From NCBI GenBank assembly GCA_008632985.1, contig QPGO01000019.1, positions 124,001 through 188,000 on the forward strand: a stretch of DNA of 64,000 nucleotides, read 5' to 3'. This document shows, piece after piece, positions 2,268-46,087 of the stretch. Position 1 is the first letter of the stretch, and each line of letters starts with the position of its first letter. This DNA is from Psammoneis japonica. Lineage: Eukaryota. Made by a program: the position numbers and the translations under genes. Under the pieces are notes generated by a model, which was not told the DNA's origin, did no database searches, and saw only the letters and a program-made list of their open reading frames with translations.

Positions 2268-2432
2268 ATGAGTGCATCATCAGAACAAGACAACGTAAAC
2301 TCTCGCACCATGGAAGACAAGTCAGTAGCATCCTTGAAGGTGTCAAAAGATGATTCCAAGACGAGCGGGGAGAAAACGACAGCCGAGAAGAAAGAACAGT
2401 CAGTGGTAGAGCAACCTCCTTCTGTTGCTATT

Positions 2433-2465
<33 letters not shown>

Positions 2466-6606: not shown

Positions 6607-6959
6607 CTTGCACCCCGATTACCGGTGGTGAAAAACTTGGCTGAAGTGTCAAGTTCAGGGGTGGAGAAGAACTTGAAGAGAAATCTCGGGTTGATTTTGT
6701 TGAGCTTGTTTGTCAGTGTGCATATTTTGCCGAATCCGTCGACTGTAGTGCATGATAAAAGAAATAAGTTGTTTGATTCGTCATCGATTGCACTTTTACC
6801 GTGAACCCCGGGTGAGTGAGCGAACACCGTTCTTACTGTAAACGTTGTTTGCGCTAGTCGGAATGCCACTCATGCAGATTGTTCACTGGTTCCAGACCAT
6901 TTTCACAAGTTCAGTGAACTGCCGGAACTTATGGACATCATTGTCTCTGATGGCACCAT

Positions 6960-8057: not shown

Positions 8058-8227
8058 NNNNNNNNNNNNNNNNNNNNNNNNNNNNNNNNNNNNNNNNNNN
8101 NNNNNNNNNNNNNNNNNNNNNNNNNNNNNNNNNNNNNNNNNNNNNNNNNNNNNNNNNNNNNNNNNNNNNNNNNNNNNNNNNNNNNNNNNNNNNNNNNNNN
8201 NNNNNNNNNNNNNNNNNNNNNNNNNNN
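8058..8227. other. Assembly gap (N run) preceded by poly-C
   Basis: Run of n characters. Confidence 0.99.
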
Positions 8228-22200: not shown

Positions 22201-25200
22201 CCTGTCCCAGATGCATTTTTCCAATGATTGCCTCCTGGAGCATGTGTGGGCAACATGGACTGTGATGAGACATTCAACAAGTGGTGCACGCATCCCTTGG
22301 AATGTCAGCATGCTGGTGTCCATCACTTTCCAGACTGGCTGGCCCAACATTTGGGTGCTGTTTCATCCTTCTGTCATTGGGAGCATCTTCTCTTTGGATG
22401 GAGCCCTTCTTCTTCATTGGCCATTTGCATGGCACAGCGAGCCTTGGAGCTCATCAAGGGTGATTGGCATGACATGGTGCATCTCCCACTCCATTTTTCC
22501 AGAGTTCACATGAACTTGCCCATGTCCGCAGGTTGTGATCCAGCCCCACCTTTTCTTGCCAAGTGTCAGCATGGTGGACACATTGCTGCTGATGTTTTTT
22601 TCCTTTCAGATGACAGTTGACCTTTTGGTCCTGATGAGGGGTTGGCTTTGGCTGCAGTTCATGCTGCATCTGCTGGCACTCAATGATGTCTGGGCATTCA
22701 GGACAATGTGCTTCAAAAATGGCACAGCACTGGTCAGCATCCTGGTGCTTGGGCTGGCACTTGTGTTCATGCTGTTCAAAGTCTGGATCAGAAATTTGTC
22801 TCACAAGCAAAATGGGAAAAGTCAAAAGTCTCTCAAGCCTGGATTGTGGGTTTTGTGTTCAAAGATCAACTTTTGCCTCATGTGGAGTTTTGCTCATGTG
22901 GGTTGGTTTTCTTTGTCATGTTGCCTTGACAACCCATGATCACAAGCCACCATGTGTGAAAGGCATTTGCCTTTCCCTCAATTCTTGGCACCCTGATTTC
23001 ACCTGACTGGGAGACAGATGCTGACAAGGACAATCCCCCACTTGTTGATGACCACTTGTTGATGACAAGGGCGATGTTCTCCTGCTTGAGTCTGCCAACC
23101 AACAAAGTGGAGGTGGAGGAACCAGAATGTGTTTCACCCATGCCTTGCCTCAAGTGTGATGTCAGTGCATCATTGTCTTCTTTCAACTTCCTTGCCTTGA
23201 TCATGGTCCTCTTGCACCAGGTTTTGGGTGTTTGCTCCATTGCACATGGTTTTGCAGATGCCTCTGGCATGGATTTTGGTGGCACTCTGTGATCTCCCTC
23301 ATCACATGGAAGCAATCCTCAACAACTTGCACTGGAAGTGGCCCACATGGTTTCTGGTGCACCCAGCTGTTAGAAAAATTGTCCAGCTGCTGCAAATTCT
23401 GCAATTTGGTCAAACACATGAGGCACATGGTGGAAAAGGGAAAGCTGACTGGCAAAGAGGTGTGGACAGCCACAGACAATGGGGTTGCTGAAAATGCTTT
23501 CTGCTCAGGCTCTTCACAAAACCCCAAGCTGTTTGAGCTCATGCTGGAGCTTCAACAGCAGATGGTGGTGCAAGTGGATTCTGTGCTTTGTGTTGTCCAT
23601 GTGGCAGGTCTCTGAATGACAAAGGAAGCAATGGATGGGCTCTCAAGGGGCAATGTGACACCCAAAGCCGTGACAGACTTGTCAAGTGCTCATGCATCTT
23701 TGGGCACCCCCCCCTTGTCCCAGTTCCCTGTGTCACTTTGGCTGCAATCTTGGTTGTGCACTGATTTCCAGGTTGCCACCCCTGAACACTGGCTCCAAGA
23801 GGCACAACAAGCCCTGGAATGTGAGTGCCTCTTGCCTTCCAAGACTTGGGTCTGGGATGTGCCACCTGCTTTGGAGTCACATGCTCTTGAAGAATTGGCT
23901 GGTGCACCACTGAAGGGTCATGATGTGCTCCAACAGGTGTGGGTTTGATCCCATGACTCCTGGAGCCTTCCTGGTTTTGTTGTTTTGTTTGTTCTGTTGA
24001 TTTTCACTTTGTCCTTCCATTGAGATGCCCAGAATGGCCAGAGTGCATGTTTGAACCTCTGATTGTTGGTGTCCATTTCCCTCTTTCTTTTAAAATGTGG
24101 GCCCTTGGAGTGGAAATGAGCCCCATTTTTGGTGGTGTTCACATGCGTGATGTCAAAGGTGTGCAAAACTGATCACACACTGGGGCATGATCATTTGCAG
24201 CAATTTGGGAATGCAGCTCTGTGGATCCAGGACATGCCAGATCACATGGTGTCCAGCACATCATCAGGCACCAACTGCCACAAGTTTCTTGGTGTGGCTT
24301 GCAACCAATCCGGTCACAGCAGGTGAATCCATTGTCAACCCAGAAGATGAAAGGCGATTCTTGGAAGCTTGTCCTGGAGATCATCTGGTTTGTCCCTTTG
24401 TGCTCAACAAATGTTCTTTGTTCTCATTGTTCAAACAGCTCCCAACTGATGATGATGCTCAAGGCAATGCCTTTGCACTGGATCACATGCAACATGCCAA
24501 CTTAGATGCCTTCCAGCTGGAGCAGGGAGCCAGAGACAGTCTCAGCAAATCTCCACTCTTTCAAGAAACAAACTCTTCTTGGCGAGGACTTGGGTTTTTG
24601 CATGTTTGACTTGCTTGGTCCATGTGAGTCTTTTGCAACTGACATGGGTCTTGCACAAATCAAATCTCCCTGGTTGCCACAAGGAGAAACAATTTTTTTG
24701 TCTGCACACAAGGCTTGAGGGATCCACACAAACATGTTTTTTGCTTCAGAAAAGGGCCTTCCAGAGCCTTTGGCAGCTTGGACTGACAAGAAACACGTGG
24801 TTGTTTGGAAGAAACCCAACTGACTCTGTGTGGTGCACTGCATTTGCCAAAGGTCTAGAGCATCATCTGGGCCAACAAGTTGAATGTGACATGGCTGTTT
24901 CCATTGAAGGTCATGACAGAATTTCTGGAGATGGCCAAAGGAGTGAGATGCAGCTGTCACAGAGGAGATTTGGATGATCAGAAAACCACGGCATTGTGGG
25001 CTTGCTGTTTTCTCATTGCATTCTGTCACAATTTGCAAGGATGGGAAGTCATGAAGGCCACTCAAAACAAGTTGAAGCATCAGATTGTTGTGGAAGAACA
25101 AGCAGCATCCAGGAACACTGTTGCTCACCCAGGTGTCTCTTTGTGTGGTTGGCTTGAATGTTGTGGAAATGCTCAAGTGTGATTGTCAGCTCTGCTCATT

Positions 25201-26895
25201 CTGTGCCTGCTGCCTGCTTTGGGTTCAAAGATTGCCATCTTTGCATGGTCAGATTCCCCCTGTTTTGGACTGGTCATTCCAGAGACATGATGGGTCATGC
25301 ATGAATGTGACAGACTTCAATGACATCTTCTTCAGACATTTGTTGAGAGTGCAGTCACTGCATTCACACATTGTCTTGGAGAACATGGATGAATTAGAAG
25401 CACGTGGATTGGCAAGGTCCTTGTGATGGGGTGCTGCTGCACGGGCTCAGAATGCAGAGGTTCTTGAACCAGACGTCAACTGGGTTGATCATTGGGGCAC
25501 TGGCATGGAGTTTGTGGTTGAGGGTCCAATGCAAGTGGCACATTCCAAGTGCCCACAGAAGTTGGAATCATTTTTAAGATTTTTCCAGGTGCTGCAATCT
25601 TTGAGGTTCTGCTTTGGTGCTTGAGTGGACAGGTGCCAAGCAGGAGCAGTGGATGCCATCCAAGCAGTTGCTGGCTCTTGGTTGGGAATGGGTGGGTTCA
25701 AATTGTTGAACAAAAGTGGGGGCTGTGATGCCACAGATGCAAGAAGGGTGTCATGGCCAGCGGTTTGTGTTTGGACCTGGTTGGTTGCATCTCAGGCTGT
25801 TGAGCAACTCCGTTGCTCTTTCTTGCTGTTGCATTGGCTGGAGCAACAGATGCTCATGATTGGCAGTCATGTGGCATGGCCCAGCTTCTGTTTGAATTGC
25901 AAGCTCCTGATTTTGATGCGTCTGCACAAATGAACCTGAAGGGGCTTCCAGTGTTGCTGGGGGCCAAATTTCTGACCAGGGTTTGTCAACCATCAGAGGG
26001 CTGCACCGCCATTGTCAAATGGAAGTGTCAGCATGTGTTCAAATGTCCAGTGGTCTGAGATTTAGAAATGAGACAAAGATCTAATCTGTGCCTTCAGGTT
26101 CACCAGACACTGAGTCCAGTGTCCAGATCATGGGTTGTGATTGGACATTTGTCGCCGACTCTTGTTTTGTTGGTCACACTTCATCAACTTGTGACCATTT
26201 CTCTCAAGCTCTCTTGTCAAACATGAAGCACATCACTTTGCAACAATTTGAGTCTAGAATGGAAAGGAGAGCACTTTTGAGAATGTGACTTCTGCGGCTC
26301 TTGACATGTGCAAACACAATCGTGTGAACAATGTTTGCAGTGGTTCAGATTGATTGCTTGCGCTGTTGACAACAGCTGTGGAGGTTTGGATCAAAATTTT
26401 TGTTCAGTGATTGTCTTGCTTCTTGTTGCCAAAACACTTGCATGCTCTCCTTCCTTTTCACTCTGACATCGTCTCATGAAAAGTTGTGCCTTTGAAACTT
26501 CGGCCATTTTTTCTTTCACTCCCACCCACCTGGTTGTGAGTCCATGGATGAAAGGGTGTCCTGGCCAGTGGCTCACACACACTTGACCTCGTTGGTTGCA
26601 TCTCAAGCTGTTTGGCAATTCTGTTGCTCTTTCTTGCCATTGCATTGGCTGGAGCAACAGGTGCTTGTGACTGGCAGTCATGCGGCATGGGCCCGGCTTC
26701 CGTTTGAATCGCGAGCTCCTGATTTTGACACGTGCCCACACAACCAAATCCAAAGGGGGTTCTGGACTTGCTGGGGGCCAAATTTCTGGCCAGGGTTTGT
26801 CAGGCTCACACCACCATTGTTCAGCAGAAGTGTCAGTGTGCATTGAAATGTCAGCGGTCTGACATTTGCAGCAGAAATGAAACGAGGAACCAGAA
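19207..26895 (+). mobile_element. Ngaro/PAT-like tyrosine-recombinase retrotransposon (DIRS order), degenerate, with split direct repeats A1-ORFs-B1-A2-B2
   Basis: A1 ~19207-19508 matches A2 ~26088-26394. B1 ~25740-26080 matches B2 ~26545-26895. RT motifs SFFVAPKGSDDIW, IAADVFFLSDD and LGIQD...PGAWAG. RNase H motifs GFADASGMDFG, TDNGVAE and HVAG...DGLSRG. YR-region motifs GDHLVCPF...HANLDAF and RSL.WGA..A. Confidence 0.75.
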
Positions 26896-27224
26896 CAGAC
26901 ATCAAAAATAAAAGGGACATTTCCCCGCAAACGACATGTGAACAAAAGGTCTAACTTGTCTGTCCTGCTGCAGGACGCAACAGCCAGTTCAGCAATGAAA
27001 CATGTAAAAAGAAAAGATCAGTGCGGTGTTGCGGGCAATGAAGGGCAACAAGGTGCATGGGAGTGACATTTGTTTCTCCTTTTTAAACGTGTTTTGCTGT
27101 GCAGCACTCTTGGCAAACATTCGTCAGCTTCTTGATTTTTGGCGTTTAGCGTTGCAATTGTTGCAGTGCACGAGACTTTCATTGACCACTCAGTGGTTGG
27201 TGATTGCAGACTTTTTCGTGTCGG

Positions 27225-27278
27225 TCCGGCAGTCGGGGGGTCGGGCAGTCGGGCAGTCGGGGGGTCGGGCAGTCGGGT
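27225..27278 (+). repeat. GGCAGTCG/GGGGGTCG 8-bp tandem repeat
   Basis: ggcagtcggggggtcgggcagtcgggcagtcggggggtcgggcagtcggg read directly. Confidence 0.8.
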
Positions 27279-27959
27279 TGTCCGTCTGAATTTGAAAGTG
27301 TGTCCCTCGGATTTTGGAACGGGATGGGTTGTTTGGTGCAGATGAATTCTTCGGATTCATGGAATGATCATTGAAGACATGAGAGGTCGTGGGGACATCC
27401 TAAAAAATTGATAAATTCCCTGCGACGGGTGCGTGGCACGGTTTTTCAGGAGAGCTCGAAAGTCATCAAAAATTGGGATTGCCAGCGTGGCATGTTGAAA
27501 AATGCACTCAGATGCAAACAAAGACAATTTGTCGTGAATTCTACACGAAACAGTCACATTTGGGAAAACATGTCGAACAACAAGTGAGTTTGTGCGATGC
27601 GCTGTTATGGCGATAAATTGGAAAAAAAAAAGAGTGTCCGTGCACCTCGCTGCAGCCCCAAAAATGGCATGAGACATCAAATGTGACGGTCATCCGCGTC
27701 ACCGGTGCGGTGGCCACACCACTCAGCCGCCACAATGCCGGCCCCGGCGGTGGGGCCCTGCGCACGTGCAGGCAATGCAGCATGCAACGGCACACACCCA
27801 CACCCACAAAGAAAGACAAGTGGTCAATGCTCCCCGCAGGCCTGGTCTTTCGGCGAATTGCGGCATTTGAGTCCCACTTTGTTTGGAGAGATCTCTCAAT
27901 CTCGGCAAGTCTCATAAAGCCAATCGAACATTGACTGACTGGGATGTTCATTCGCAACA

Positions 27960-30485
27960 ATGTTTGCCAGCAGAGCAGTTCTTCTCCTGCTCGCTGCAGC
28001 TTTTGCTCCGCAGAGGAGCGAAGCCCAACAGGTGCAGACGGATGAATCGAGCTCACTTTGTTTTGGAGTGCTTTGTTCTTGCTTCCTTTTTGATTTCTAA
28101 CTGGATTTTTCCAAATGAATCCATTGCACAAAGGCAGCAGATGACTGCGCTCTGGAAGAACTTCTTTTTCTTGGCAATCTCCAGCGGGAACTTGGCACCG
28201 ACATGGGCATCCCGGGAATCGTGGAAAATGCCGTGTGCATGAATGATGCTGCCATGGAACCTGGGCTTGCATGCACCTCCCAAGCTGTCGATCTAGCATC
28301 GGCTCTCCCACCCACAAATGTTGCGGGCTGCATCATGGAAGGAGATGATGTCAGTTTCCTTTTGCACTTCCAGCTCAACACAAATTCAGGTCAACGCTTC
28401 GACGTTGGCATTTGGTTTTCAGAAATGGGTGCAAGCGCCCAAACAGGCGAATGCACTGTGGTGAATCTTCCATGGGGGCAGGCACCAACTTACATTGGCT
28501 TGGATGTGACGAGCAACCCTTTTCCAGGAGGCAGCGGAAGTGCCCCTCCATTCAACATACAAGATGCGTGCGGAGACCTTGACAAAAGTGCTCAGACATT
28601 CCCTGTCTTGCTGACCATCCCCTTGACGGTGAAATGCGTCGATCTAGTTGGCAATGATCGAATGTTAGATGCACCGCACTGCACCAGCTGGAGGACTTCA
28701 GGAATGACTGAGAATGCCCCATGCACATCTCCTCTTGAAACTTTTCCTCTTGAAAAAAGCATGTGCAAATGCAACGTGTTAATGCTCCCCATCATGGTGC
28801 CAGGCACGCCGAGTCCCACGCCATCCCCTGCCCCGAGTCCGACGCCATCTCCAACTCCAGCTCCTGCCCTGAGTCCAACGCCATCTCCAACCCCTGCTCC
28901 TGCGCCCAGTCCGACGCCATCTCCAACTCCAGCTCCTGCTCCGAGTCCGATGCCGTCCCCCACACCAGCGCCAATGCCGTCTCCAACCCCTGCTCCTGCT
29001 CCAAGCCCGATGCCGTCTCCAACGCCTGCTCCTGCTCCGAGTCCGACGCCGTCCCCTGCACCAGCGCCAACACCGTCACCCACTGTGCGGAAGGGTGCTT
29101 GCTGCCCTCTAGCTGGATCCAACAGGGTTTGCTTCAAGGGAGCTGAAGAAGAATGTCTTTCAAATTACGGACTCTGGCAAGGGAACAGCGTGACGTGCAA
29201 GGACGTAGATTGTCCGACATCACCTCCTGCAAGCTCTCCTGCCGAAAGCCCCACCATGGCTCCAACTGACCCGGCTCCGACAGCAGCTCCAACGACCCCT
29301 GCTCCTGCCAGAGCTCCCACACTGCCACCGATGAAAGTTGATCAGAGTCCAGGAGCATGCTGCACCTTGTTTGATGGATGCAAGTTTCTTTCTCAGGAAA
29401 CGTGCGCTTTGGGTGGTGGTGCATTTACAAAACCAAACCAAAAGTGCAAGGACACTGAATGCCCCAACAAGGGAGCTTGCTGCTTGGAGGATGGATGCAG
29501 CAAAACTTTCAAGAAGGAGTGCACCAACCAAGGAGGCAAGTTCAAGGGATTTGGCATGCCGTGTGAACCTGGTTTGTGCCCGACCAAACCACCAACTCCG
29601 GCTCCTGGCACCGCAGCACCTACGCAGAAACCCACCGTTGCTCCTCCTCCGACTGGAGCATGCTGTGATGTTGAGGATGATAAATGTGAGCAAACCACAG
29701 AAGAAGATTGTGACACGGGAGCATTCTTGGGGCTTGGAGTCAAGTGCAAGCCGGGTGTTTGTCCCACAAGGACTTCTCCAGGAGCCTGCTGCCTCAAATC
29801 TGGAGAATGCCGTTTCTGGTCTCAACGGACATGCGCTGCAAATGGAAACTTCTTCTTGGGTCCTGGTGCTTCCTGCAAGAATGTGGTGTGCCCAGGCAAG
29901 ACTCCAAGCCCTGCCCCTGCTCCGGTCAAGAAACCGATTGGAGCCTGCTGTTTTGAAAGTGGTCTTTGCCGCAACCTCATGCCTGCCGTGTGCAGGAAGA
30001 AGCATGGCAAGTTCATCGGTGAAGGTGCCATGTGTGCGAAGGACAACCGCTGTCCGGTTGGACAATGCGGCAAGCCCGGTGCGTGTTGTCTTGTGAAGAA
30101 AAGGCAGTGCAGGACTCTCCCTGAGAAGAAGTGCAAAAAGAAGGGTGGACATTTTGGTGGTGAAGGTGCCAAGTGTAGCATGAAAACGTGCCCTGCCGCA
30201 CATGGTGCCTGTTGCTTGCCAAATGGAAATTGTGCTGTGTTGAAGAAGACTGCTTGCGTCAAGAAGAAGCAGGGAAAGTTTGTCGGATTTGGCACCAAGT
30301 GTAAGAAGAAAACCTGCGCCTCCAAACCCGGTGCCTGTTGCTGGAAGAATGGCAAGTGCATGATGTTCAAACAGTCCAAGTGCCACACGCGTGGAGGAAA
30401 ATTCGTGGGAGCCGGTGTCAAGTGCGGCAAGAACACATGCCCCAAGAGCCCTGATCACAAATGGTTTGTGTTGAGTGTGAGATGA
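27960..30485 (+). pseudogene. Copy 2 of the secreted GACC-repeat gene. ORF open but TpA/CpG-hypermutated. Exons 27960-28031 and 28134-30485
   Basis: Collinear with 3862-6606, including upstream sequence and intron. Numerous TA->TG/CA and CG->TG/CA changes. Intron donor gtacgg->gtgcag. Stop TAG->TGG with read-through WFVLSVR. Expression is unknown. Confidence 0.8.
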
Positions 30486-32230
30486 TGTACACATCTTTTG
30501 TCATTTGCTTGCAATGCAATGAGCAACTCATTTTATCTTCATCCATTCAACCAATTGTGCCTTTGTTCTTGCATTGAGAAACATTCTGTTGCTTGCAGTC
30601 CTCAACATCAGATGGTGGGGGCAGTGGATGCAGAGGGAAAATGTCAGAGACGTGCGACACCGCTGATGAAACCAAGCCCGGTTCATGCAGAGCATGTCTT
30701 TTAACGCAGCGGTCTAGTTGCTGCACACATTTGACTTTGACAAAAAGCCTCCCATCCTGCTGCCAGGTTTTTGAGCTGTCTCCAAACTGTCTGTTCAATT
30801 GCTGCAAGAACAAAGACTGTCAAAAATGTGGCAAATCAAGACATGAAAGCAAGGAGCTTCTTGCTTGCTTGTCCCAGTTTCACTGCCAATGACAAGTCTG
30901 ACTTCAGCCACACGAGAGTGGCAAATCCAGCATTGAGCAACCATTGCTCCAAAAACAAAGTGCTCAGGTGTCACAATGTTCCAAACAAGAACATCTCAAC
31001 TGAGGACTGGAACGCTGAAACAACGGCCACAATGGAACGAGGTGCCAACTCTTTGCTGAAGGCAGTGGTGCCATGCTCTTCAGGAAAAGAGACTCTGTTC
31101 TTTTCAAGAAATTTTGCAGCAATTGATGCTCTGTTGCCCAACCCAAATGACCCAGATTCAGACTTGCAAGAAGAAGAGGTGCTGCTTCACAACAAGGGCA
31201 CTTGTTCTTTTCTGACTGACGTGGCTCTCAAGAGTCATTTTGCAACTCCAGCACAACTCCAATCAATGGACATCCATGGTCAGGGCATTGTCGGCAATTA
31301 AATCAAGATTGCACTCACAGAACTTGGCTGTGCAAAACAATGCTGTTGATTGTGCCTTGCAAAAGTTTTGCATGAAATCTCTTGCATCATTGCAGGCCAC
31401 AGGCACCAGGCACCAGGCACCAAACTGGGCGACAAGGGAAAAAATGCTCGCCATTTCCAAAGTGCCCTTTTTCTTGACTGTCAAAGTGTTTGACACACAC
31501 TTTGGTCTTCAACACAAAGTTGTTTGCCTGAACAACACTGTGGTGGATTTGTCCCAAATGTCATTGATGATGCTTGGCTTTGCGTCAGGAAGCTGAGTGG
31601 GACCCAAAAGCTCTGTGACATGTGACTTGTGCCACAACTCATGATGTCCAATTGTCCACCCTCAATGAAGTTCACACAACAACCAATGGATGTGCAGGAC
31701 ATCAAGCACCAGTGCTCTCTTGTTGTGAAACCTTTTAAATCTCTTGCACAAGAGCTCCCACTGTGGGAGACAGCACAGTGCCGTCAATGGCATCCAGCAA
31801 TGCACCGCCATTGGAGCTGTCAAGTGCGCCTGTTTGGACGCTGTCAGATGCCCCTTTGGAAGCCCCAGGTGTGGAGGACAGCACAGCAGCATGCTGTCAG
31901 AAACTCCAATTCATCCACCAATTTCATGGCTCCATCTGCATTGCCCCTCTGTTGTGACAATCCTTGATGCGCTGCTCAGTTGTTGTGGCCCACAACTCAG
32001 AATCTTCTGCAGAAAACCCTGAAAGTCAAACCAACAAAAATCATGAGTGATCCATTTTTTGCTTTTTGGAAGTTTTGCAGAGGAGTCTGCACCCACAGCA
32101 ACATGCCAGCAATTGCAGCCTCGCTGACAATGAACAAATTGCAATGACAAGAAAAACAAAGCACGCTTTTTGATGGTGCTTTCTCCGACATTCAATCTTG
32201 GTGTTGGCACATTGGCCAGTGCTTCAACAC

Positions 32231-32399
32231 TCACAGACTGCCAGCATTGGGACAATCCAGCAGACATCTGGGACAGATGACAATCGCGCACTGGATGAGA
32301 AAAAAAGGGAGCAAAAGAGAGATCATCGGATCTCTCCATGCTGTCTGTGCCAGTCTGTCTGACACAAGGGAGTGCACTCCCCATCTCGGATGTCTGCCA
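32231..32399 (-). repeat. 3' LTR of Copia element
   Basis: Direct repeat of 39153-39321, adjacent to the polypurine tract. Confidence 0.9.
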
Positions 32400-35300
32400 C
32401 CCTCCCCTGATGAGCAATGCAATGCTCATCAAGAAAGAAAGAGATGATCCAAATAAAAAAGAGGATCAGAACAGCAGAACAAAAAAGAGGACCAGAAAAG
32501 AAAACTCACCAAAGACTTGATCCGCAAACACGATGACAATCAACGGCAGTGTTCCATCAAATGGCGGGCATGGCGGGAGTGAAGCATCCAACCCACAGCC
32601 TTGGTTAGTGCGTCAGCAGGGTCAATGACACCCGGAATGTGTCAAGTGACAATTTTGCCTGTGTCACACCAGTCTTGGATTGCAAAATGTTGAACATCAA
32701 TGTGGTGGGATTGCCCCGCAGGCACCTTGTCATCGACCATCTGGATGGCAGAGGAGCCGTCAATGTGCGAGGGAGCAGGATCTTGTTGGGAAAAACCCAG
32801 CTCTTCAAGGACCACACAGAGGCACAGAGTTTGCTTTGCACCAATGACAGCTGCAAGAAATTCAGCTTCTGTGGAGCTGGTGGCCGCAGTTGTCTGCGCA
32901 CGGCAACAGCAATCAGCTGCAGCACCAGCAAGGACATGTGCACACCCGGCAGCAGACCGCCGATGCCAAAGTTCATTGGCATGTGCTGCATCAACAAAGC
33001 CAAGAAGTTGGAAAAGACCATCAGCACAAGGAAAGTCAGGAAGGGATGGATCATCCTCAAGCCACTCAAAGGCACGAGGAGGTGAACCTGGATCCCGCTT
33101 GGTCTTCTCATGCGTCAACCCCCAATGCTTGGTGTGGCACAAATGCTTGGCCATGCGCTTGAGAGACCCACAATGAATTTCAGCCAGAGCCTTGGAGAAC
33201 TTGGACAAGGTGACAACAGGAAGACCGACATCCAAGCAGCAACACGAACAAGCAAAGACCAGCTCACCCAAGACAGAATGACAAGAGAAAAGCCCTGGGA
33301 TTCAGAGAGAGTGCCACACTCGGGAGCACCTTTTCTGCTGGACCTTCAGCAGCACACAAATCTGCAATGCAATCAACCGGCACAGGCGCAGCCTTGAAAT
33401 CAGTGTCACATTCGCAGCAGGAGCATCCCATCCATGAGTCTTGAAGACACGATCGAGGCAACTTGCAACATTGATCGCAATCAAGTCATCATTCTGGATG
33501 ACATCAATGCCACTGAATTCAGCAACCAAACCCAAATGCTTGACTGGGGGGGTGTCTTGATTCTCCATCTGGAGGGCCTTTCCAATGTGGTCACAGATCT
33601 CTTTTGCAATCTTCTCCAAGGGACAAGCAAGTGCAAAATCATCAACTTGACAGAGCAATTGGACCTTGACACCATCATGTTCACCAGAGCAGATGCACTT
33701 GTCATGAGCAGCATTTTGGAAGAGAAGTTTTGCACCCAAGAGAGTCGAATTTATGTGCTTTTCCCACAGGACACCAGCTTCAGGATGGCCTTGGAGGGCA
33801 TGCTTGAGCAAAAGAATGCAATGGCGGGGCACTTTCTTGCCAAAATGACTTTCATGCCACATGCAGCACATGCATCATCAACAGCAACAAACACTGGTTG
33901 TGAAGGTGTTCCACACAAGACGAATGCGTGGAGGTCAGTTTGTGCAATGCTGGCACAGCCGACTTGGATTCATCTCCACATTGTCCAGAATGACATTGTC
34001 CATCTGGCTTTGCCATGCAATCCCAATGTGGACACATGACATTTGCTCCAGGGGGACGCGGTTGTGGAGGACCATGCGTGCCAAGTGCACAAAATTGGCC
34101 CAGTTGATGCTTCTCTCCTTCCTCCCATTCCGGCCATGTGTCAAGTTCATGGAGCTTGGCACGGGTGAGATGGTCAAGGGCAGCTTCTTCCGGAGTGAGA
34201 GCACAGGAACCAATTGCATGAAGATGGGCACAAAAGACATCCATTGGAATGGCCTCATCAGAGAAATCATCTTTGGGGTGGAGAAGAGCTGCAATGGATC
34301 AGACATCCTCCAAGGTGAGCTCGAGCACATGGGAGTCATCTTCCATTGAGTCTGGATCAAACAACTCCACTTCCTCAAATGCTTTGTTAAGAGTTCGGGA
34401 GTCCAGATGTCTTTCCGGTGCAAAATCAATCTCAAAAGTTGGAATCTCATCACGAAAGACCCACAACAGTGTGTCTTCAGCATCTTGTGGTGCAAAGACT
34501 TCCTGCTTGTTGACAGAGACAATGCATGCACCCATGAGCTTTTTTCAAGCAGCGCAAAGGGATGAGAGTGATGAGGCCGCAGGATTGCGCTGCTTGATTT
34601 CTGAGATGCAGACATGATCTTAAAGCACACTGGGAGAAGCCAAATCTGCAGGTGGGGTCCTTGGGAGGACATTTCATGGTGCAAGCAACAGTCTTGGCAA
34701 ATGGGTTTGATGAAGAAGCAAACTCAGGGACAGTTGTGCCCTGTGTTTCAGCCGGAAAAGGCTGACCATTTTCCACATGTTGCAAATGGGTGGCATTGGG
34801 AGGAAGTTGATCCAAAAACAGGTCATTCACACCCTCATCACACCGCACATGCTTGACTGTCTTGACCTTGTCAATCTCAGGATCCCACCAAAGAACATTC
34901 TTCAAGGTGTTTGGGAGACACCCAAGGAATGCGCATTTCTTCAAATTTGTCCAGAACGTTGCAAATGGGTGGCATTTGGAGGAAGTTGACCCAAAAACAG
35001 GTCATTGGCACCCTCATCACAACACACATGCTTGGCCATCTTGACCTTGTCAGTCTCAGGATCCCACCAAAGAACATTCTTCAAGGTGTTCGGGAGACAC
35101 CCAAGGAATGCGCATTTCTTCAAATTTGTCCAGAACGTGGCAGAACAAACAGCAGATCATCTGGCGACACTCGACATCCAAAAGTCTTCAAAGCAGCAAA
35201 ATTCTTGATCTTTCCAGTGACAAGGGCAATGGGGGATGCATCTTGATCTTTTGCAGGAGTGGCATTCTTGACACGGAGGTGATGGCAAAAAGCACAAGGC

Positions 35301-38300
35301 CAGAATCTGATTGGGAGGTTGGCAATGATTAAAATCGCACAAATCGGGTTCTCGACATTCAAACATGATGAGCGTTCAACAGGGCCACATTGGTTGGATG
35401 CACCAGTGCCAGAAGGACACATGTCATGCTGGAATTCTTGTTCAAAGAGGTCACAAACTTTGGGGCTCTTGTGCAATTCCCCACCTTGATCCAAGGTTGC
35501 ATGTTTGTCATGACAATTTGGCGAGTGTCGATCCAAGAATTGGCAAATCCACTTGAGAGGACTGGCTCAAGAGACCCGCGCAACACCATGAAGCGTGTGT
35601 GTTTTATGATCATGGACAGTGATCCAACACGTTTCACCATCACAACCAAGACAGTCAGACTTGCAGTCTTCATTCTTGGAAGCCTGACCAGCAAAAGCAA
35701 AATCCACAGCAAGGCCTTGTGTTGGGTCCAGCGGGCATCTTGACTTGCTTTGCCTGAATGCACGTGGGACAAGCACCAAGGACCGGGTTGGCATGCCTGA
35801 ACTTGGGGACTCCTTTGATGTGCTTGTGAGCGTTGCACAAGCAATGATTGCTGGGATGTCCAAGGCAGTGGTGCCATGGGAGATGTTCAGTCTCAACTTT
35901 GAGAGAGCGGGCCAGAGCATGAGTGGGCAACTGTGGCAATGTGTGTGCAACAGAATTGCGTTTCATTGAAAACAACTCAGCATCCATCATTGGGGGGTCA
36001 GATGGAGTTTGTTGAACATTGACACAGAAGACAGCACGTTGGCATGCACCGTCAATGTCACCAACCAATGTCGGGTCAGGTGCTGAGTGTGCTGTGCAGA
36101 CATCAGTCTTGGACGGGGAATCAGAGGCTGTGCAAAGACCTTTCCATGCCAGAGGATGCCATGGACAACTGCCTCTTTGGTGTCAGTCAAAGCAGCACAT
36201 TGGCACAGGTCTTCTCAAGAAGCTCGGAGCGAATGACCTGAGGTTTAAAACCAGAAGCCCACGCAAAATCACGTTCATCAATCAAGGTGGAATGCAGGCT
36301 TGGATGGCAAAAGGTGTGCACAAGAAGAAAGCAGTCAGCATTCTCTGCGGGTGCTTGTAAATGACCAAAGCCATGAGGAGCCATGTCAGAGCTTTCAGCA
36401 GCAGAGAGCATCTTCAAAGGACAGGGATTGTCCGGTCCAAATGGGGTGCAAGCATGGAGAAGGTTCCATTCTCCTGCACAGAACACCCAAGCACCAGCAT
36501 CAATCTGTGCACGGTGTGACATTGAATCATGGAGCACATGATTGAAAGGGACAATGGGAGTGTTCAATGATTCAAAAGTTGCAGGTGATTTTGGTGGATA
36601 AAAAATCAGAGAGACACACACTGCACTCAATGGCAACAAGTGCTGGCTGGCAGTCATGTTGAGGTGCTCAAAGTCTTGATCTTGGTCAGTGGACAGAGGG
36701 TCATCAAAATCTTGTGCAGGAGGTTCATGAAGAATGGGTTCCCTCCCCTGATTAATGTCATCAGGGTCATCATCCGGAATTGTCTTGACATCCGGAGTGC
36801 TGGCCTTCATCGGATCCAAAAGAAGGTTTGCAAATGACACACATGAAAGAGGTGGTTCAGCGGAAGGCAACGAGTTGGTTAGACCCTCTTTTGCAGTTGC
36901 CCCACTTGCAGGAGTTGATTTTGGATTGGAGAGAGATGGGTGGCATTGTTTGTCCGAACGCAACAATGGCCCCAGGAAAAATCCTTCTTGGGCTTCTCAG
37001 ACTTGAGTGCATCTCAAGCATGCTGATCGCATTGAAGGAATTGGAAGAACCAGATCAGGTGAGTGTGCAAGCACTCAGCATTGTTCAACACTGGGCACTC
37101 ATGAAACAAGTGACCATCGCCACAGACAACACATGGGCAAGTCTGTGCAGCAGCAGGTGATGACTCAATCCTGCAGATGCAAGCCTTGCAAACACCATGC
37201 AGTGCTTGTGCTTCATCATCCAGAGGGATTTCCACAGCAGCAAGTTCATTTGCAAAATGCTCCATGACATCCACAGGTTCTTCCGCAGGAGGAGAATTGG
37301 TTTCTGTTGGAGTCTCTTCTTCAACAACTGGAGGTGGAATCAGACGATTCGTCTTCAGGCAGCAAGTCCAGACCTCGAACAGGAGCTGCAAGAGAAGGGT
37401 TTGCCGGGGGACAAGGAATCTGATTATGGAGACAATGTGGAGGACACTTGGGAGGGTCCTTGACACACAGATCAGGGCTGTCCGGTTCCTTGAGTGTCAC
37501 ACTGATGGTCTTGACAATCTTCTTCTGGGCAAACTTGTGTTGCTTGTTCTTGTCTTCCCAAGCATTCACTGTTTTGCAGTGTGGATGCTCTCCATGCCGG
37601 GCATTGCCAAGAAAAATGTCCAGCTCACCAGGATCATCAAGGGATGCATCAACATTGGAGATGATTGCCTGCAGTTGAAGGCAGTCTCGGAAAAGAGCAC
37701 AGCAACTAAGAATTGTGAGGTTGTTTTGGTGGGGGCAGCTCTTGATTAATTCACACGGACGCTTCATCCAAATTGGCAGGACATCAAAGAGGATCATCTT
37801 GAGGGCAGCATGTCCATCTCCATGGCACTGACAAACAATGTCAGGATGCTTGGAGTTGGCTGGAAAGATTCCAACCTTCTGAATGCACTGGAAGACAGTC
37901 AACTTCATCCGGTCAAGTGGTGCTCGCATCCGAAGTGGCAGGTCATCTGCAGGATCATTGCCACTCGTGAAGCCCCAATTTCTGCCATCCTTGATAAAAC
38001 ACCAGAGGGGGTGCATGCACGTGCCACAAGCCGAGGCTTGTTGGGTTGCTGCAGTGTGCCATGCACGGATTCCTTGAGGAGAGATGTTGTCACAAGCAAG
38101 AGGGTCGTGAAGAAAAGACTTGGCATCCCAGTCAGTGCAACAGACAAAGAGAGAACCATCAGCAAGCATGAGATGCTCTGCACCATCTTCACAGTGAAGA
38201 TTTCCAGACTTGCAGGGCACCAGTGACTTCCCTGACACCACTTTCCCGGCTTCCTTGTGTTGACAGCAAGCTGGTGCAACCTTTGGAAGTCCTTTTGGGT

Positions 38301-39152
38301 CAAAGGTGCACACAGCACTGGCGGCAGTTGAGGAAGAAGCCACAGTGGTGGCAGTCATGGCAGAAGGTGCAGAAGATGGTGCAGGAGGGGTGACCAGGCA
38401 AATGAGTGGCCAAGGCCTCGGCAAAGTCTTCAGGAGCAGCACCTGCAGTGGGAGCCGGTGGAGGTGCAGAGCTTGAGGTTTGAGATGACTTTGAATGTGG
38501 AACATTGGACACATCGTCCCAACATGCAAAAGATGGAAAAAGGAACACAGTCTCAACACAGAACGTCATGGTGTCATGGCCATCTGAAATTGCTTTGATC
38601 ACAGCCTTCTGAAGATTGGCGAGGTTTGGACAAATCAGAGAAGCTTCAGGAGTGGCCACAAAGAGAGGAGCTTCATCCACAATCAGACCAATCTGTGTGA
38701 GATCTTCAGTCAGTGCAGCCTTGGGGGTGATGAGGTCTTGAACAATCTTGTGACAGAGAGCAGCAACAGCATCACTCTTGAGGCCTTGAGGAGTGAATCC
38801 ATCCAGAATTTCTTCAGGAGCAGGCATCTTGTTAGAATGAAGGACGTTCAGGCAATGATGGGCATCAGGCAAGTGATGCTGAGGGTTAAATTCAACCAGT
38901 GTCGACTTGATCTTGGTCAAATCGACAGCATTTGGGGTTTTGTTCTTGCCATCATTGTGCGAAAAAAAATCAAATTCCCATGCCAAGCTCTGGTGTGTGT
39001 TCTACGGTGGTCGTTTGATCACAAATCAAGAGGTGAAAAAACAGCTGCAACAATGATGATGATTTCAACAAAGAAAAATCACCAAACCACACAGCGGGCG
39101 TTGCAGCGGATCGGCACAGAGGAAGACAAACGGCACACTGCTGCTCATGACC

Positions 39153-39321
39153 TTGCAGACTGCTGGCATCAGGACAATCCAACAGATGTCTGGGACAGAT
39201 GACAATCGTGTGCTAGATGAGAAAGAAAGTGGGCAAAAGAGAGATCATCGGATCTCTCCGTGCTGTCTGTGCTGGTCTGTCTGACACAAGGGAGTGCACT
39301 CCCCATCTCGGATGTCTGTCA
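39153..39321 (-). repeat. 5' LTR of Copia element
   Basis: Direct repeat of 32231-32399, followed on the minus strand by a PBS-like sequence and gag. Confidence 0.9.
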
Positions 39322-39860
39322 AACACTGGCGCGTGGTTTTCAGAAACAGGTTCGAGCACCCAAACAGGAGAGTCTGCACTGTGGTGGACCATTGGCACCA
39401 TGCACAAGAATGACAATGCATGTCCAATTGAGCTTTGCAGCATGCCCAGCGAATCATGCTGCTCAGTTGAAAAAAGGCGGTGCAGAGCTCTTGAGGAGAA
39501 GAAGCGCATCAAGAAGGGCGGGCATTTTGCTGGCAAAGGTGTCAAGCACAGCAAGAAATTGTGCCCGGCCACCTGTGGTGCACACTGCTTGCCCAAAAGA
39601 TCATGTGCCATGTTGAAGAAAAACACTCATGCAAAGAAGAAGCACACGGAATTTTTTTTTTTAATTTGGCAAAAGAGCAAGTGCAAGAAGAAGTCTTGCA
39701 CCTCCCTGGGCCTGGGTGCCTGTTGCTGTTCCGGAAGAATGGCAACAAGCATGCACAATGTTGAAAGGCTGCAAGTGCTGCAAACACAGAGGAGCATTTG
39801 TTGGAGCTGGCATCAAGTGCCACAAAAAGCCTGCCCCAAGATCTCTGATCCCAAGCAGCC
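39322..39860 (+). pseudogene. Copy 3 (fragmentary) of the GACC-repeat gene, split by the Copia insertion
   Basis: Joining 32214-32230 to 39327 gives GQCFNTGAWFSETG (copy 1: [14 protein letters not shown]). It then jumps to IGTMHKNDNACPI...KKGGHFAGKG...CPATCGAHCLP...GACC...GAGIKC.KKPAP. Confidence 0.75.
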
Positions 39861-40743
39861 ACACCCCAATTGAGAGGTGCAGAGAAGACCTTTTGAAGAA
39901 AATTCTCAGGTTGGCTTTGTTGAGATTGTTTGTCATGTGCGCACAATTTTGCCAAGTCAGTCAACAACAGCGCATGGCAAAAAATTGAGCTGCATGATTG
40001 GCTCTTCACAAGCTGCACTTTTTGCCATGAAGATTGGAAAATGGGGTGAGTGAGTGCATGCCATTTGTGTGTTGTTGTGCTCACAGCAACAAAAGAAACA
40101 AAAGCAATTGCTGCACTCATTTCAAAGGCAGGGCGTTCAAAACTCACAATGCTGCTCTGGCCATTGCTCATTTTTCCAGCTTTCCTTTCTTGTTTGTCAA
40201 CCCTCTTGTGATGACCACATTGTGCCAGCTTCAGTTTGCATCTGTGAGAAAAGTGCCCAGGGGATCCTTGGCTTGTGACACGGTGCTGTAACAACAGACC
40301 CCATTGCATTGACTCATGTGTAGCTGGACTGCAGATCGAAAGAATTTAGTTCAAAAGATGTGACAGTCATGGTCATAGGACAACATGAAAATTTCTCTCC
40401 TGTAACGAAAAGTTTAACGCTTTTCTCTTTGCTTCTTCTACTATTTTTCCTTATGTATATTTCGAGTAATCTGTCTCTCTGACATGGTGAATGCCAGTAT
40501 CGCCCATCATTCACATTCGACTATTTATATGTGAATGAAAATTTGGGTGGATAACACAGTCTTTGTTTTAGATGTCCGGTATTCAATTTTATATTCAGAT
40601 CGCAAGATGTATCAAGGTCTTTTTTCGGCCCCACAAGTCATTCAAAATGCCATTTTCTTGTCGGAACAGGTTACGCAACTTACGCACACGCACAACAAAT
40701 ACCGATAAAACACTTCTTTCTCCGCACTTACGCAGTGTTCACA

Positions 40744-42430
40744 ATGGGTTTCTTAGCAACAACGACCCTCGCTGCTTGCCTTTGCGCAACACCAGTTTTT
40801 GCTACACCTGCTTATCCAGAAGGATGGGCTTCCCCTCAACCAGATGGATTTTCAACGGGGCAAATGGAGCTTCTCGTGGGTAAGTGCGCTGCAATCACAG
40901 AACCATATGCTATACACTTTTTGCGGGTTCTAACACTGACAACCACCACCACATCCGTTTCAACAAAAAGGAACGCCCGAATATCATTTTAGCGTGGCAC
41001 AGGTTCCGGATGGGTTCTTCACAACAATTCGATCTCTTGATGGCTGGGTTACCTATGCTGACCTTGATGACACAGGTGCTCTCACTCCTACGGAATTTGT
41101 TGTCGGTCGAGACGATCCTCCAGTGACCAGTTTAATGCTGGTTGAGGAAGAATCCGTTCGCAACAAAAAATGTTTAGAGAGTGATTATTGTTCTTGGAAG
41201 CTCAATCATGCTACACCGCAGCCAAGACACGTAACTGGAACGGTGAAGAATCTTGTCATCCCGATTCAGTTTAGTAATCATGATGACCGTTTGTTGATTT
41301 CCGAAAAGGATCTAGAAGACGACTTGTTTAACGATGTCGACTTGTCAGTTCAAGATTACTTTTCTGTGCAATCTCAAGACCAGTTCAAGCTTGTTTCGGT
41401 CGTGGCACCGTGGGTCAAGATATCCATGACAGAGGCTGAGTGTGCCAATGGCAAGAGCGGCCTTTCCAACAAGATTCACGAGTGTCTAGAGGAAGCCATG
41501 GACTTGGTGGGTGAACACGTTGATTTTGATGACTTTGATGAGGACGGTGATGGTATGATTGATGCTCTTACGTTTGTTCACAGTGGCTACGGCGCCGAGT
41601 ACGGAGGAGACGATGAGGACTATTCCTACTACACGGACCGAATCTGGAGCCATTCTTGGGAGCTACCGCAAAAGTCCAACGTGCCGTATGCCCTCTTCTC
41701 TGCCTTTCATGGCACTTATAATGGACACATTTCTCGGGTCGGTGTGCCCGTCCATGAGATTGGTGCCATGTTGGGCGCTCCCACGACCTATGGTGACTTT
41801 CCTGGTTTTGGTCTCGGATCGTACGATTCCATGGCCTATCCTTTTGGCTTTGATGGAACAGAATACCACCCGGGAAACATGAGTCCTTACACCAAGATTC
41901 ACATGGGATGGGGGGACGTTATCGAGATTGATGAACCAGGCACCTTTACGGCTGTTGTCGAAAGCGGCACTATTTTCAAAATCACAAAGGGATTCCCGTC
42001 TGGTGAATACTTGTTGATTGAAAACCGCCAATCTGAAGGCTACGACGACGGGATTCGACAAGGAGGAATCGCCATTTATCACGTGGATGAGGCTGCTGGA
42101 TCACAAGCCGGCCATCCCGAGCAACCCGACTACCCTTACAATGGCAAGCACTACCGCGTCGCCTTGCTGCAGGCCGATGGGCGCTTTGACTTGGAACGAT
42201 ATGAAGACGCTGGTGACTCAACGGATCTCTTTCATGGAACAGAGATAAGTGGAGTTGGACCCAATGGACCCATTGTTTCACCAGAAGCCTTAGCGGAACA
42301 TTCCGACGAGTATCCCAACACTATGGCCTATCAAGGTGGACAAATTGAGAATGGTCAATTGACCATTTTCAACATCTCCCCGTCCGATCAAGAAATGACG
42401 TTTGAAGTTACTTGGGATACAGGGAATTGA
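40744..42430 (+). CDS. Secreted M6 (immune inhibitor A-like) metalloprotease homologue with degenerate zinc motif. Exons 40744-40879 and 40971-42430
   Basis: Signal peptide MGFLATTTLAACLCATPVFA. Intron gtaagt...ctaac...aag at 40880-40970. Motifs NLVIPIQFSNH, SVQDYF..QS, FDEDGDGMIDA..FVHSGYGAE, IWSHSW, HEIGAMLGAP, EYLLIENRQ and GIAIYHVDE. Confidence 0.88.
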
Positions 42431-45400: not shown

Positions 45401-45690
45401 GACATGAAGAATTTAACAGCACTCGTTTTTCTTTTGTGTCTGCCAAATTGTGCCCAGAAAACTGTTTCTGCAGGACTCTGGCACAGATTTTGTGTAGAAA
45501 AATTGTGCGCAAAATGTTGACACACTTGATGACACACTCAATGACACACTTTTTTCCCTTTCCCCCTGCAAGTGGCATGAGCTCTGCTGGCTAGAGAGCA
45601 CTCCCATGGATTGCAACATGTTTTGGCTGGTGCACAGACAGATTTCTACGTGATTTCCATGCACCTCGTAAGAATCACGCAGCGGCAACA

Positions 45691-46087
45691 GACGGGTTCC
45701 AATCCCAGGTGGGACTCCATGTGACATTGGGCCCACAGAATTCCACGTGCAAGCTCCACAGCAAATTCATTGAACAATGAAAACATCAATGATTGCCAAC
45801 AGAAAAAGAGGCAATTTTACAAACGTGTCTCCTCCTTCACACTTGCAGTGCATCAATGACAGCATGCATGGGTGTGTTCTGCAGACATTGAAGAACATGC
45901 CCAGTGCATTTTTGTTGTCACAAATGTTGAAAATAGAAAGCCTTTGGCTTCGCAAAACAGGAAGCATGAAACAATTTTGTAGAATGTCACATGCAGCCAT
46001 CTACGTGCACGACATGCGGCGCGATCCAAAAAACCATTGATGTCACAGTTCAGTGGCGCAAGGTCCCACCTGGAGCTGGAATGCGTC
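45691..46087 (+). mobile_element. MITE / non-autonomous DNA transposon with 4-bp TSD (AACA)
   Basis: Imperfect TIRs GACGGGTTCCAATCCCAGGTGGGAC ... GTCCCACCTGGAGCTGGAATGCGTC. AACA on both flanks. Homologous to 58953-59239. Confidence 0.8.

Follow-up and report, generated by a model that had tools for sequence, protein, structure and literature searches.

A stretch of 64,000 nucleotides of the Psammoneis japonica genome (GenBank assembly GCA_008632985.1, contig QPGO01000019.1, positions 124,001 to 188,000 of the forward strand), referred to here as the window and numbered from its first letter, was found to carry two copies of one gene, the second of which (copy 2) has probably undergone a region-targeted, dinucleotide-specific hypermutation. 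According to this explanation, copy 2 would have diverged under selection for a time and would then have been mutated in a silenced, transposon-rich compartment. The signature consists of the conversion of TpA into TpG or CpA on both strands, together with a smaller class of changes from CpG into the same two dinucleotides, and the composition that it leaves behind extends over most of the window. The other copy (copy 1) was spared and was used as the reference.

Two Copies of One Gene

The analysis by self-BLAST and alignment revealed a 2.8-kb segment present twice in the same orientation and with sharp boundaries, copy 1 at 3813–6610 and copy 2 at 27911–30468, with an identity of 88–90%. The duplicated segment spans from 49 bp 5' of the ATG to 4 bp beyond the stop codon of copy 1, and the similarity between the copies breaks off abruptly at both ends. 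An array of Pro/Thr (PT) repeats in the middle of the segment differs in length between copy 1 and copy 2, and this PT-repeat linker (4710–5197 in copy 1) was excluded from all the substitution counts given below.

Both copies have the same gene layout, in which a 72-nt exon 1 for a signal peptide is followed by a roughly 100-nt intron and then by a single long exon. In copy 1 (plus strand), exon 1 occupies 3862–3933, the intron 3934–4035 and exon 2 4036–6606, and the product has 880 amino acids. In the hypermutated copy 2 (also plus strand), exon 1 lies at 27960–28031, the intron at 28032–28133 and exon 2 at 28134–30485, forming an open frame of 808 amino acids. The protein, which is of the secreted type, is composed of the signal peptide, an N-terminal domain of 225 amino acids, the PT-repeat linker and around 11 Cys-rich repeats.

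The Differences Between the Copies Are Concentrated at TpA and CpG

The aligned core comprised 2302 columns with 188 substitutions, 136 of them transitions and 52 transversions. Copy 1 contains 68 TpA in this core, of which copy 2 kept only 15; 24 were found as TG, 25 as CA, 4 as another dinucleotide and none as CG. The reverse case, that is, TG or CA in copy 1 at a place where copy 2 carries the dinucleotide, occurred once, so that the asymmetry was 49 to 1 (binomial p = 9e-14). Copy 2 has 16 TpA, 15 common to both copies and one that corresponds to this single TG of copy 1. A weaker asymmetry of the same kind was observed for the 109 CpG of copy 1: 66 were kept, 17 had become TG, 20 CA and 6 another dinucleotide, with 5 reverse cases (37 to 5, binomial p = 4e-7).

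The same effect was clear when single bases were counted. A>G changes affected 25 of the 68 A preceded by T and 18 of the 516 remaining A (Fisher p = 7e-15), and T>C changes 25 of the 68 T followed by A and 6 of the 456 remaining T (Fisher p = 3e-19). For C>T, the figures were 17 of the 109 C followed by G and 15 of the 485 remaining C (p = 5e-6). Overall, 77.9% of the TpA and 39.4% of the CpG differed between the copies, as against 4.5–12% of the other dinucleotides, with the exception of AC, GT and AT, which overlap TpA and differed at 18–26%. These values are reflected in the composition of the two copies, with a rho(TpA) of 0.58 and a rho(CpG) of 0.80 in copy 1, like those of the neighboring genes, and of 0.12 and 0.55, respectively, in copy 2. 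The intron and the 49-bp 5' flank were retained in copy 2, and both are mutated.

The TG and CA outcomes were not grouped along the gene (30 runs, 25.5 +/- 3.5 expected), and no strand runs were seen. Since the strand outcome is random along the gene, the changes represent many independent single-site events and not processive, strand-specific bursts. No TpA had changed into CpG; a site ceases to be a target after a change on one of its strands.

These counts bear on the original prediction, which was made from the letters of the two copies and proposed that copy 2 had lost TpA by mutation on both strands. Every example of TA replaced by TG or CA that it quoted was found in the alignment, and the even split of 24 TG and 25 CA agrees with the involvement of both strands. 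Of the eight Tyr codons in the aligned part, five had become His and one Cys while two were kept, as it had stated; likewise, the TAG stop of copy 1 (6604–6606) reads TGG in copy 2 and the intron donor GTACGG reads GTGCAG. The enrichment at TpA persisted when the substitutions were tabulated by dinucleotide context (49/68 TpA changed to TG or CA, 1 reverse). The CpG component, the extent over the whole window and the flanking-base rule described below go beyond what had been claimed.

Copy 2 Is the Changed Copy

Three independent lines of evidence were used to establish which copy had changed. The first relied on homologues of the N-terminal domain. This domain (within 4036–4710) matched no Pfam family, and a search of 1.84 billion representatives gave 378 homologues at E<=1e-3, a number that fell to 138 when the threshold was set at E<=1e-10; judging by the cluster names, members of the family are present in the green alga Mesostigma and in bacterial metagenome-assembled genomes (Amphritea, Acidobacteriota). 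The outgroup set consisted of 143 N-terminal domains, namely those of the 150 listed homologues with a match of at least 150 residues, and polarization was carried out at the protein level with these outgroups of 31–49% identity. TA-type changes alter the amino acid at 12 positions of the domain, and there the outgroups shared the residue of copy 1 272 times and that of copy 2 42 times. All of the well-conserved columns favored copy 1 (T145, 72 v 9; Y182, 64 v 1; L196, 77 v 1; V180, 23 v 1; T46, 17 v 0).

The second line was the genomic place of each copy. The non-homologous flanks have a rho(TpA) of 0.54–0.72 around copy 1 and of 0.03–0.16 around copy 2. Hence, the TpA level follows the genomic place and not the gene lineage.

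The third line came from nine repeat pairs located inside the TpA-depleted zones, including the putative long terminal repeats (LTRs) of a copia element described below. These pairs differ by 183 transitions and 47 transversions, and at 47 sites one repeat copy has CA and the other TG, which accounts for 94 of the 183 transitions. Such a double difference implies a TA or CG ancestor, with one change in each copy, since any other ancestor would need two simultaneous changes. The three lines agree and, as judged by sequence comparison, copy 2 is the derived, mutated copy. The direction of change proposed originally, from copy 1 to copy 2, is therefore supported by the outgroups, the genomic place and the double differences of the repeat pairs.

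The TpA Changes Are Blind to Protein Function

The coding changes of TA type comprised 16 synonymous and 29 non-synonymous ones, in keeping with the neutral synonymous share of 0.418 calculated over 61 coding TpA (p = 0.45). Those of CG type were 18 synonymous and 14 non-synonymous, for an expected synonymous share of 0.455. The other 91 coding substitutions showed a clear synonymous excess, with 44 synonymous and 47 non-synonymous changes for an expected share of 0.257 (p = 3e-6). The neutrality of the TA-type changes, together with the constraint on the ordinary ones, indicates that the two copies diverged under purifying selection and that the wave of TpA changes was blind to protein function. 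The suggestion that copy 2 was an already diverged paralogue before its mutagenesis fits this signal of purifying selection in the 91 ordinary substitutions.

Residues conserved in the family were found replaced in copy 2: D122G (99 v 0), A85S (117 v 13), Y182H, L196P and T145A. Copy 2 reads through the former stop, where TAG has become TGG, and its frame closes seven codons further on at a TGA. The open frame of copy 2 is weak evidence of function, because the process destroys TAA and TAG stops and does not create them.

Depleted Zones and Islands of Normal Composition

The whole 64-kb window has a rho(TpA) of 0.17, a rho(CpG) of 0.44 and a rho(TG/CA) of 1.64. A composition profile in 500-bp bins was used to map the zones, and the positions of the individual TpA to fix their borders, which proved to be abrupt on a scale of a few hundred bases. 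TpA-depleted zones make up about 80% of the window, with a rho(TpA) of 0–0.27, and the remaining 20% consists of three islands of normal composition (12.7 kb in total) that hold the intact genes.

The first island (539–6930) contains a sulfotransferase-like gene (856–2037, minus strand), an open reading frame (ORF) at 2468–3265 and copy 1. It is followed by a depleted zone of 33 kb (6931–40288) that holds copy 2, where rho(CpG) is about 0.05 at 7–26 kb, 0.4–1.0 over copy 2 and about 0.3 at 30.5–40 kb. The second island (40289–42514) holds a peptidase M6-like gene. After it, the depleted zone 42515–48192 includes a part, 47001–48000, with a rho(TpA) of 0.03–0.06 and a rho(CpG) of 0.84–1.12. The third island (48193–52298) carries an AAA_16 ATPase gene and the next ORF, and the last depleted zone runs from 52299 to the end of the window at 64000, with a rho(TpA) of 0–0.27 and a rho(CpG) of 0–0.8. 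Since the intact genes, copy 1 among them, were spared and the borders are sharp, the changes appear to have been targeted by place or chromatin state and not by duplication as such.

A comparison of normal with strongly depleted DNA gave, per kb, a loss of 35.8 TA and 40.2 CG and a gain of 47.2 CA and 30.4 TG. The joint loss of TA and CG (76.0) was matched by the joint gain of TG and CA (77.6), and no other dinucleotide changed by more than 9.1. Because loss and gain balance each other, the G+C content stays at 45–50% throughout the window.

With respect to the content of the depleted zones, 121 of the 154 window ORFs of at least 120 amino acids were scanned against Pfam, the other 33 being situated in the normal islands or overlapping copy 2. 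Only RVT_2 (33305–33874) and gag_pre-integrase (35673–36182) were found, both on the minus strand and below the cut-offs, and there was no viral family among these 121 ORFs. The two sub-cut-off matches are enclosed by LTR-like direct repeats of 163–195 bp, placed at 32206–32399 and 39150–39318, and this combination outlines a degraded Ty1/copia-type retrotransposon (32206–39318, minus strand) inside the 33-kb zone. Its LTR pair shows 5–6 of the CA-versus-TG double differences. Outside this element, the depleted DNA was mostly unrecognizable.

TAA and TAG are nearly absent at 7000–40000 and 52500–64000, where stop-to-stop ORFs of 120–414 amino acids abound in all six frames. With stops so rare, gene finders would over-call in the depleted zones, where one should expect long spurious ORFs as well as pseudogenes that, like copy 2, look intact.

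A Flanking-Base Rule Governs the Survival of TpA

In the strongly depleted DNA (40 kb), 133 TpA survive, and 48 of these are within TTAA, as compared with 19 of 494 in normal DNA. The surviving TTAA are dispersed across all of the depleted zones. At the other extreme, no TpA survives in ATAC/GTAT or in ATAT, one survives in GTAC, two in ATAG/CTAT and six in CTAC/GTAG. Survival was intermediate for TpA with one 5' T or one 3' A, and for CTAG.

The same rule was observed in the gene pair, where 35 of the 39 TpA without protective flanks had been converted, as against 14 of the 25 with a 5' T, a 3' A or in CTAG (Fisher p = 0.003). Four TpA in a fast context survive in copy 2. The context effect for CpG is weak, unlike the rule for TpA.

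CpG Loss Has a Narrower Footprint

Every 500-bp bin poor in CpG was also poor in TpA, but the converse failed. The two losses are uneven along the window: 78% of TpA and 39% of CpG are changed in copy 2, both dinucleotides are near zero at 7–26 kb, where rho(CpG) is 0.0–0.2, and TpA was lost without any loss of CpG at 47001–48000. The TpA and CpG signatures may thus share only their target compartment. Two processes acting on one compartment would account for the data, and the CpG loss would most simply be due to decay of 5-methylcytosine.

Agreement of the Assembly With Sequencing Reads

The window was compared over 24000–43000 with contigs built from the one DNA run that contains this stretch (X1, word depth of about 59). 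The contigs matched the depleted sequence, with 2 differences in 3203 nt over 24000–27202, and the letters typical of copy 1 as well as those typical of copy 2 were present in them, each at roughly the depth of a single copy (58.5 of 126.6 at 28253–28274). Outside copy 2, 18 differences between the window and X1 were listed in this range, among them eight of CG versus TG or CA and one of TA versus TG. The window has TG or CA at five of the eight CG sites and CG at three. These sites represent either CpG polymorphism between alleles or errors that remained in the assembly where CpG are modified; with regard to methylation of the remaining CpG, they give no more than a hint. Three single-base insertions distinguish the window from X1 (35165, 39823 and 42906).

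Directly 5' of copy 2 there is an 8-bp tandem repeat (GTCGGGCA-like, at least 6 units) at 27224–27287, which explains a locally high CpG. The word depth of X1 rises to as much as 8618 over 27170–27803 and the contigs skip 72–82 nt there; hence, the tract would be a simple repeat of high copy number or variable length. In one X1 contig, position 27846 is followed directly by 31402, so that 3555 nt with the whole of copy 2 are missing. The shorter side of this joint has 21 letters and lies beside the simple repeat, and the joint, which was not used, may represent a form from which copy 2 is absent or an artefact of the repeat.

A second run (X2) gave a contig of 1687 nt that aligned to 40707–40878 and 40970–42484 and skipped a 91-nt GT..AG intron (40879–40969). 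As the contig shows the peptidase M6-like gene in its spliced form, X2 is probably RNA, even though its listed type is 'DNA?'. The span of the transcript (40707–42484) nearly coincides with the second normal island. On copy 2, X2 gave a single 41-nt piece of PT repeat, which has no bearing on expression, and no RNA run was listed as containing copy 2.

Other Relatives of the Gene and Neighboring Features

A third, older paralogue fragment is present at 39382–39844 (plus strand), inside the 33-kb depleted zone. It consists of Cys-rich repeats with 56% amino acid identity to residues 731–821 of copy 1 (tblastn), and its DNA is 74% identical between 6161–6389 and 39389–39620. It was tried as an outgroup and rejected because of its location in TpA-depleted DNA. 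On the 3' side of copy 2, at 30961–31516, three short inverted matches (17–27 nt, 74–88% complementary) to its Cys-repeat region were noticed, and these suggest a possible further fragment of the family of the duplicated gene, inverted and strongly decayed.

The search for homologues with the copy 1 protein gave 2114 matches, those in the C-terminal part being PT-rich stretches of 43–75 amino acids, and none of the best 120 of the 2114 aligned to the N-terminal domain. A metagenome scan with this domain found no relative. Among 5.8 billion clusters, near-identical entries were found neither for copy 1 (best, 59% over 30% of the query) nor for the AAA_16 protein (40%), whose best named relatives are diatom proteins with 28–32% identity; coming from one gene family, this is a weak pointer to a diatom. 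The sulfotransferase-like ORF had no match at E<=1e-5. No Rfam families or tRNAs were found in the window.

A direct repeat of 151 bp, 99.3% identical, is located at 48145–48295 and 48600–48750, at the 5' edge of the third island and the start of the AAA_16 ORF. The single difference between its two units is TA versus TG. The assembly has a gap of 170 N at 8058–8227, in the first depleted zone.

Discussion

A TpA-specific hypermutation has been described in the chlorarachniophyte Bigelowiella natans (Mettrop et al., bioRxiv 10.64898/2026.01.13.699255, 2026). Of the 302 mutations found in its mutation-accumulation lines, 231 were located in two integrated viral regions, and 230 of those 231 mutations were A>G or T>C, all 230 of them at TpA; the authors also reported 124 clusters poor in TpA and rich in CpA and TpG, and proposed an ADAT2-like adenine deaminase. 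Apart from this work, a full-text search of the literature found no description of hypermutation from TpA to TpG or CpA.

For the window studied here, it is proposed that a gene duplication at the DNA level, including the intron and the 49 bp of 5' flank, would have given copy 2, and that this copy would have diverged for a time under purifying selection before coming to lie in a silenced, transposon-rich compartment open to hypermutation. There, the main process would have converted TpA to TpG or CpA (A>G on either strand), site by site and on both strands. It would have erased the RTAY sites (ATAC, ATAT and GTAC), it would have been slowed by a 5' T or a 3' A, and TTAA would have been nearly immune to it. 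The conversion of 49 of the 68 TpA of copy 2, and of about 92% of the TpA in the oldest zones, would be its result. A second, partly separable process, with a footprint within that of the first, would have changed CpG into TpG or CpA, including 37 of the 109 CpG of copy 2. The pattern of the changes, their polarity, their context rule, the lack of selection on those of TA type and their regional extent were all observed. The cause would be enzymatic, either a deamination of adenine to inosine at TpA, as has been proposed for B. natans, or an oxidation of thymine at TpA; silencing would be the targeting signal, and the CpG loss would reflect methylation.

Several points weigh against this proposal. 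At five of the 12 TA-type amino acid sites, slightly more outgroups carry the residue of copy 2 (13 of 143 at most), although these five are variable columns in which neither residue is in the majority. The CpG loss is decoupled from the TpA loss in places (47–48 kb), without a counterpart reported in B. natans. Furthermore, X1 may stem from the same sample as the assembly and is therefore not fully independent of it. Finally, what is proposed about the activity, about when it took place and about the signal that targets it is drawn from composition alone.

The raw differences between the two copies are symmetric, and they could be read in the opposite direction. The change of CpA into TpA is the classical signature of fungal repeat-induced point mutation (RIP), and TGG>TAG is a typical RIP stop, so that a RIP-like C>T process at CpA and TpG could have hit copy 1, creating its TpA, premature-looking codons and its TAG stop, with copy 2 as the ancestral form. 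There is hardly any chance of this, since the outgroups agree with copy 1 at conserved columns, the TpA level of copy 1 is that of its unrelated neighboring genes and the level of copy 2 that of its unrelated flanks. In addition, RIP mutates both duplicates and here one was spared, the CA-versus-TG double differences require a TA or CG ancestor, and the asymmetry at CpG would demand a change of TG or CA into CG, which is an unknown process. It is also most improbable that the signature is a sequencing or assembly artefact, in which a long-read assembly would have miscalled modified bases (5-methylcytosine at CpG, an altered T or A at TpA) and the apparent mutations would be modifications of heterochromatic DNA. 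The three single-base insertions and the 8 of 18 differences of CG versus TG or CA between the window and X1 are indeed typical of long-read errors or of alleles. Nevertheless, the X1 contigs (about 59x) reproduce the depleted sequence almost exactly, and miscalls would explain neither the decay of the copia domains below the Pfam cut-offs nor why any given site reads consistently as CA or as TG. Selection in place of mutation, by which TpA and CpG would be purged because they are read by a nuclease, a restriction-like system or UpA-dependent RNA decay, would recall the selected avoidance of TpA and CpG that is known in viruses and phages. This explanation is very unlikely too, because the zones are non-coding or degraded DNA with both strands affected, the TA-type changes of copy 2 replace conserved residues without a synonymous excess, and the dinucleotides lost are matched in number by those gained.

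The two alternatives that concern the enzyme carry more weight than these. In the sequence, A>G on one strand looks the same as T>C on the opposite strand, and the mutated base might be T, if a TET/JBP-type oxidation at TpA gave 5-hydroxymethyluracil or 5-formyluracil, which would then mispair with G and lead to T>C. The 5-hydroxymethyluracil of dinoflagellates shows a preference for TpA, and 5-formyluracil promotes T>C mutations. This route is regarded as unlikely, although worth serious consideration; the candidate in the B. natans preprint is an ADAT2-like deaminase. Somewhat less credit is given to a single enzyme for TA and CG, which would be a deaminase with activity on A as well as C, or a dioxygenase whose substrates, at pyrimidine-purine palindromes, are the two 5-methylpyrimidines, T and 5-methylcytosine. 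In its favor, every low-CpG 500-bp bin is also low in TpA, both dinucleotides are self-complementary pyrimidine-purine (YpR) steps that end as TG or CA, and the ADAT2 of amphioxus has been reported to edit A and C in DNA, as cited in the preprint (bioRxiv 10.64898/2026.01.13.699255). Against it, the ratio of the two losses varies (at 47001–48000 the TpA are gone with a rho(CpG) of 0.84–1.12, and at 7–26 kb both are near zero), the B. natans lines gave changes at TpA only, and the CpG context effect is weak in comparison with the TpA rule. A region-targeted hypermutation at TpA, with a partly separable loss of CpG, is the explanation retained.

The process shares the defining signature of that in B. 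natans and is of a kind known from one recent preprint, here in a different organism. In both cases, TpA is changed to TpG and to CpA on both strands, and discrete regions become poor in TpA and rich in CpA and TpG. Transposon-related sequences are affected in both, and a defence-like role has been proposed for B. natans. There are also several differences. The depletion is much deeper here and covers about 80% of the window, with a rho(TpA) of 0–0.1, in contrast to 0.45 in a B. natans region of nucleocytoplasmic large DNA virus origin (NCLDV). The targets here are a duplicate of a host gene and a copia element, without any viral domain found in the 121 ORFs scanned, whereas they were integrated viral regions in B. 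natans. CpG was lost here (37 CpG changed to TpG or CpA in copy 2), whereas the text of the preprint never uses the word CpG. A tetranucleotide rule was found here, and the main text of the preprint has no tri- or tetranucleotide analysis, although its Table S2 or Fig. 2B may hold one. Finally, mutation-accumulation lines were used there, while regional confinement is observed here through composition.

With fungal RIP the process has in common a defence-like, dinucleotide-specific hypermutation by transitions that degrades transposons and is able to hit duplicated genes, and a pair of duplicates can be used to read out either of them. It runs in the opposite direction, since RIP makes TpA from CpA and the process described here destroys TpA. 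Moreover, only one copy was mutated (copy 1 has just 1 TA-type and 5 CG-type reverse differences), which argues that targeting is not by homology, and the host is not a fungus. The decay of CpG driven by 5-methylcytosine also changes CpG into TpG or CpA in transposon-rich DNA, and would agree with a rho(CpG) as low as 0.0–0.1. However, it covers only the smaller, second class of changes, and the TpA loss reaches beyond the CpG-poor sub-zones. Adenosine-to-inosine hyperediting of the ADAR type, with its preference for a 5' U, and editing of the APOBEC type likewise produce clustered transitions with a preference for the 5' neighbor in repeats or foreign sequence. Their substrates, however, are RNA or single-stranded replication intermediates, and the runs that they leave are coordinated by strand, in contrast to the random strand outcome found here; moreover, the intron, the 5' flank and the unrelated flanking DNA are all changed in the present case. 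An origin of copy 2 by RNA hyperediting and retrocopying was considered as well and was ruled out by the mutated intron, the mutated 5' flank and the depleted unrelated flanks.

What is new in this case is an unrelated second host, the loss of CpG, the targeting of a transposon and of a gene duplicate, and the tetranucleotide rule. The saturated end state in the window shows the long-term effect of such a process, in which TAA and TAG stops and Tyr codons are erased while the GC content remains constant. The pair formed by a spared and a hit copy provides an internal control, and the hit copy gives a polarized, selection-free spectrum. In addition, the flanking-base rule is a fingerprint against which any candidate enzyme, be it a deaminase or a dioxygenase, can be tested, and other genomes can be searched with it.

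On a broader scale, and only as a tentative proposal that may well prove wrong, this could be a chromatin-targeted, TpA-erasing base-editing defence with tetranucleotide specificity, fastest at RTAY and without effect on TTAA, in a second eukaryotic lineage, probably the diatoms or other ochrophytes, far from the chlorarachniophytes. It would operate on a larger scale and, accompanied by CpG decay, would saturate most intergenic and transposon DNA as well as silenced gene duplicates. If this were true, the defence would be both old and widely distributed, an equivalent of fungal RIP whose chemistry runs the other way, and it may be driven by a single family of enzymes for which both of the self-complementary YpR steps are substrates.

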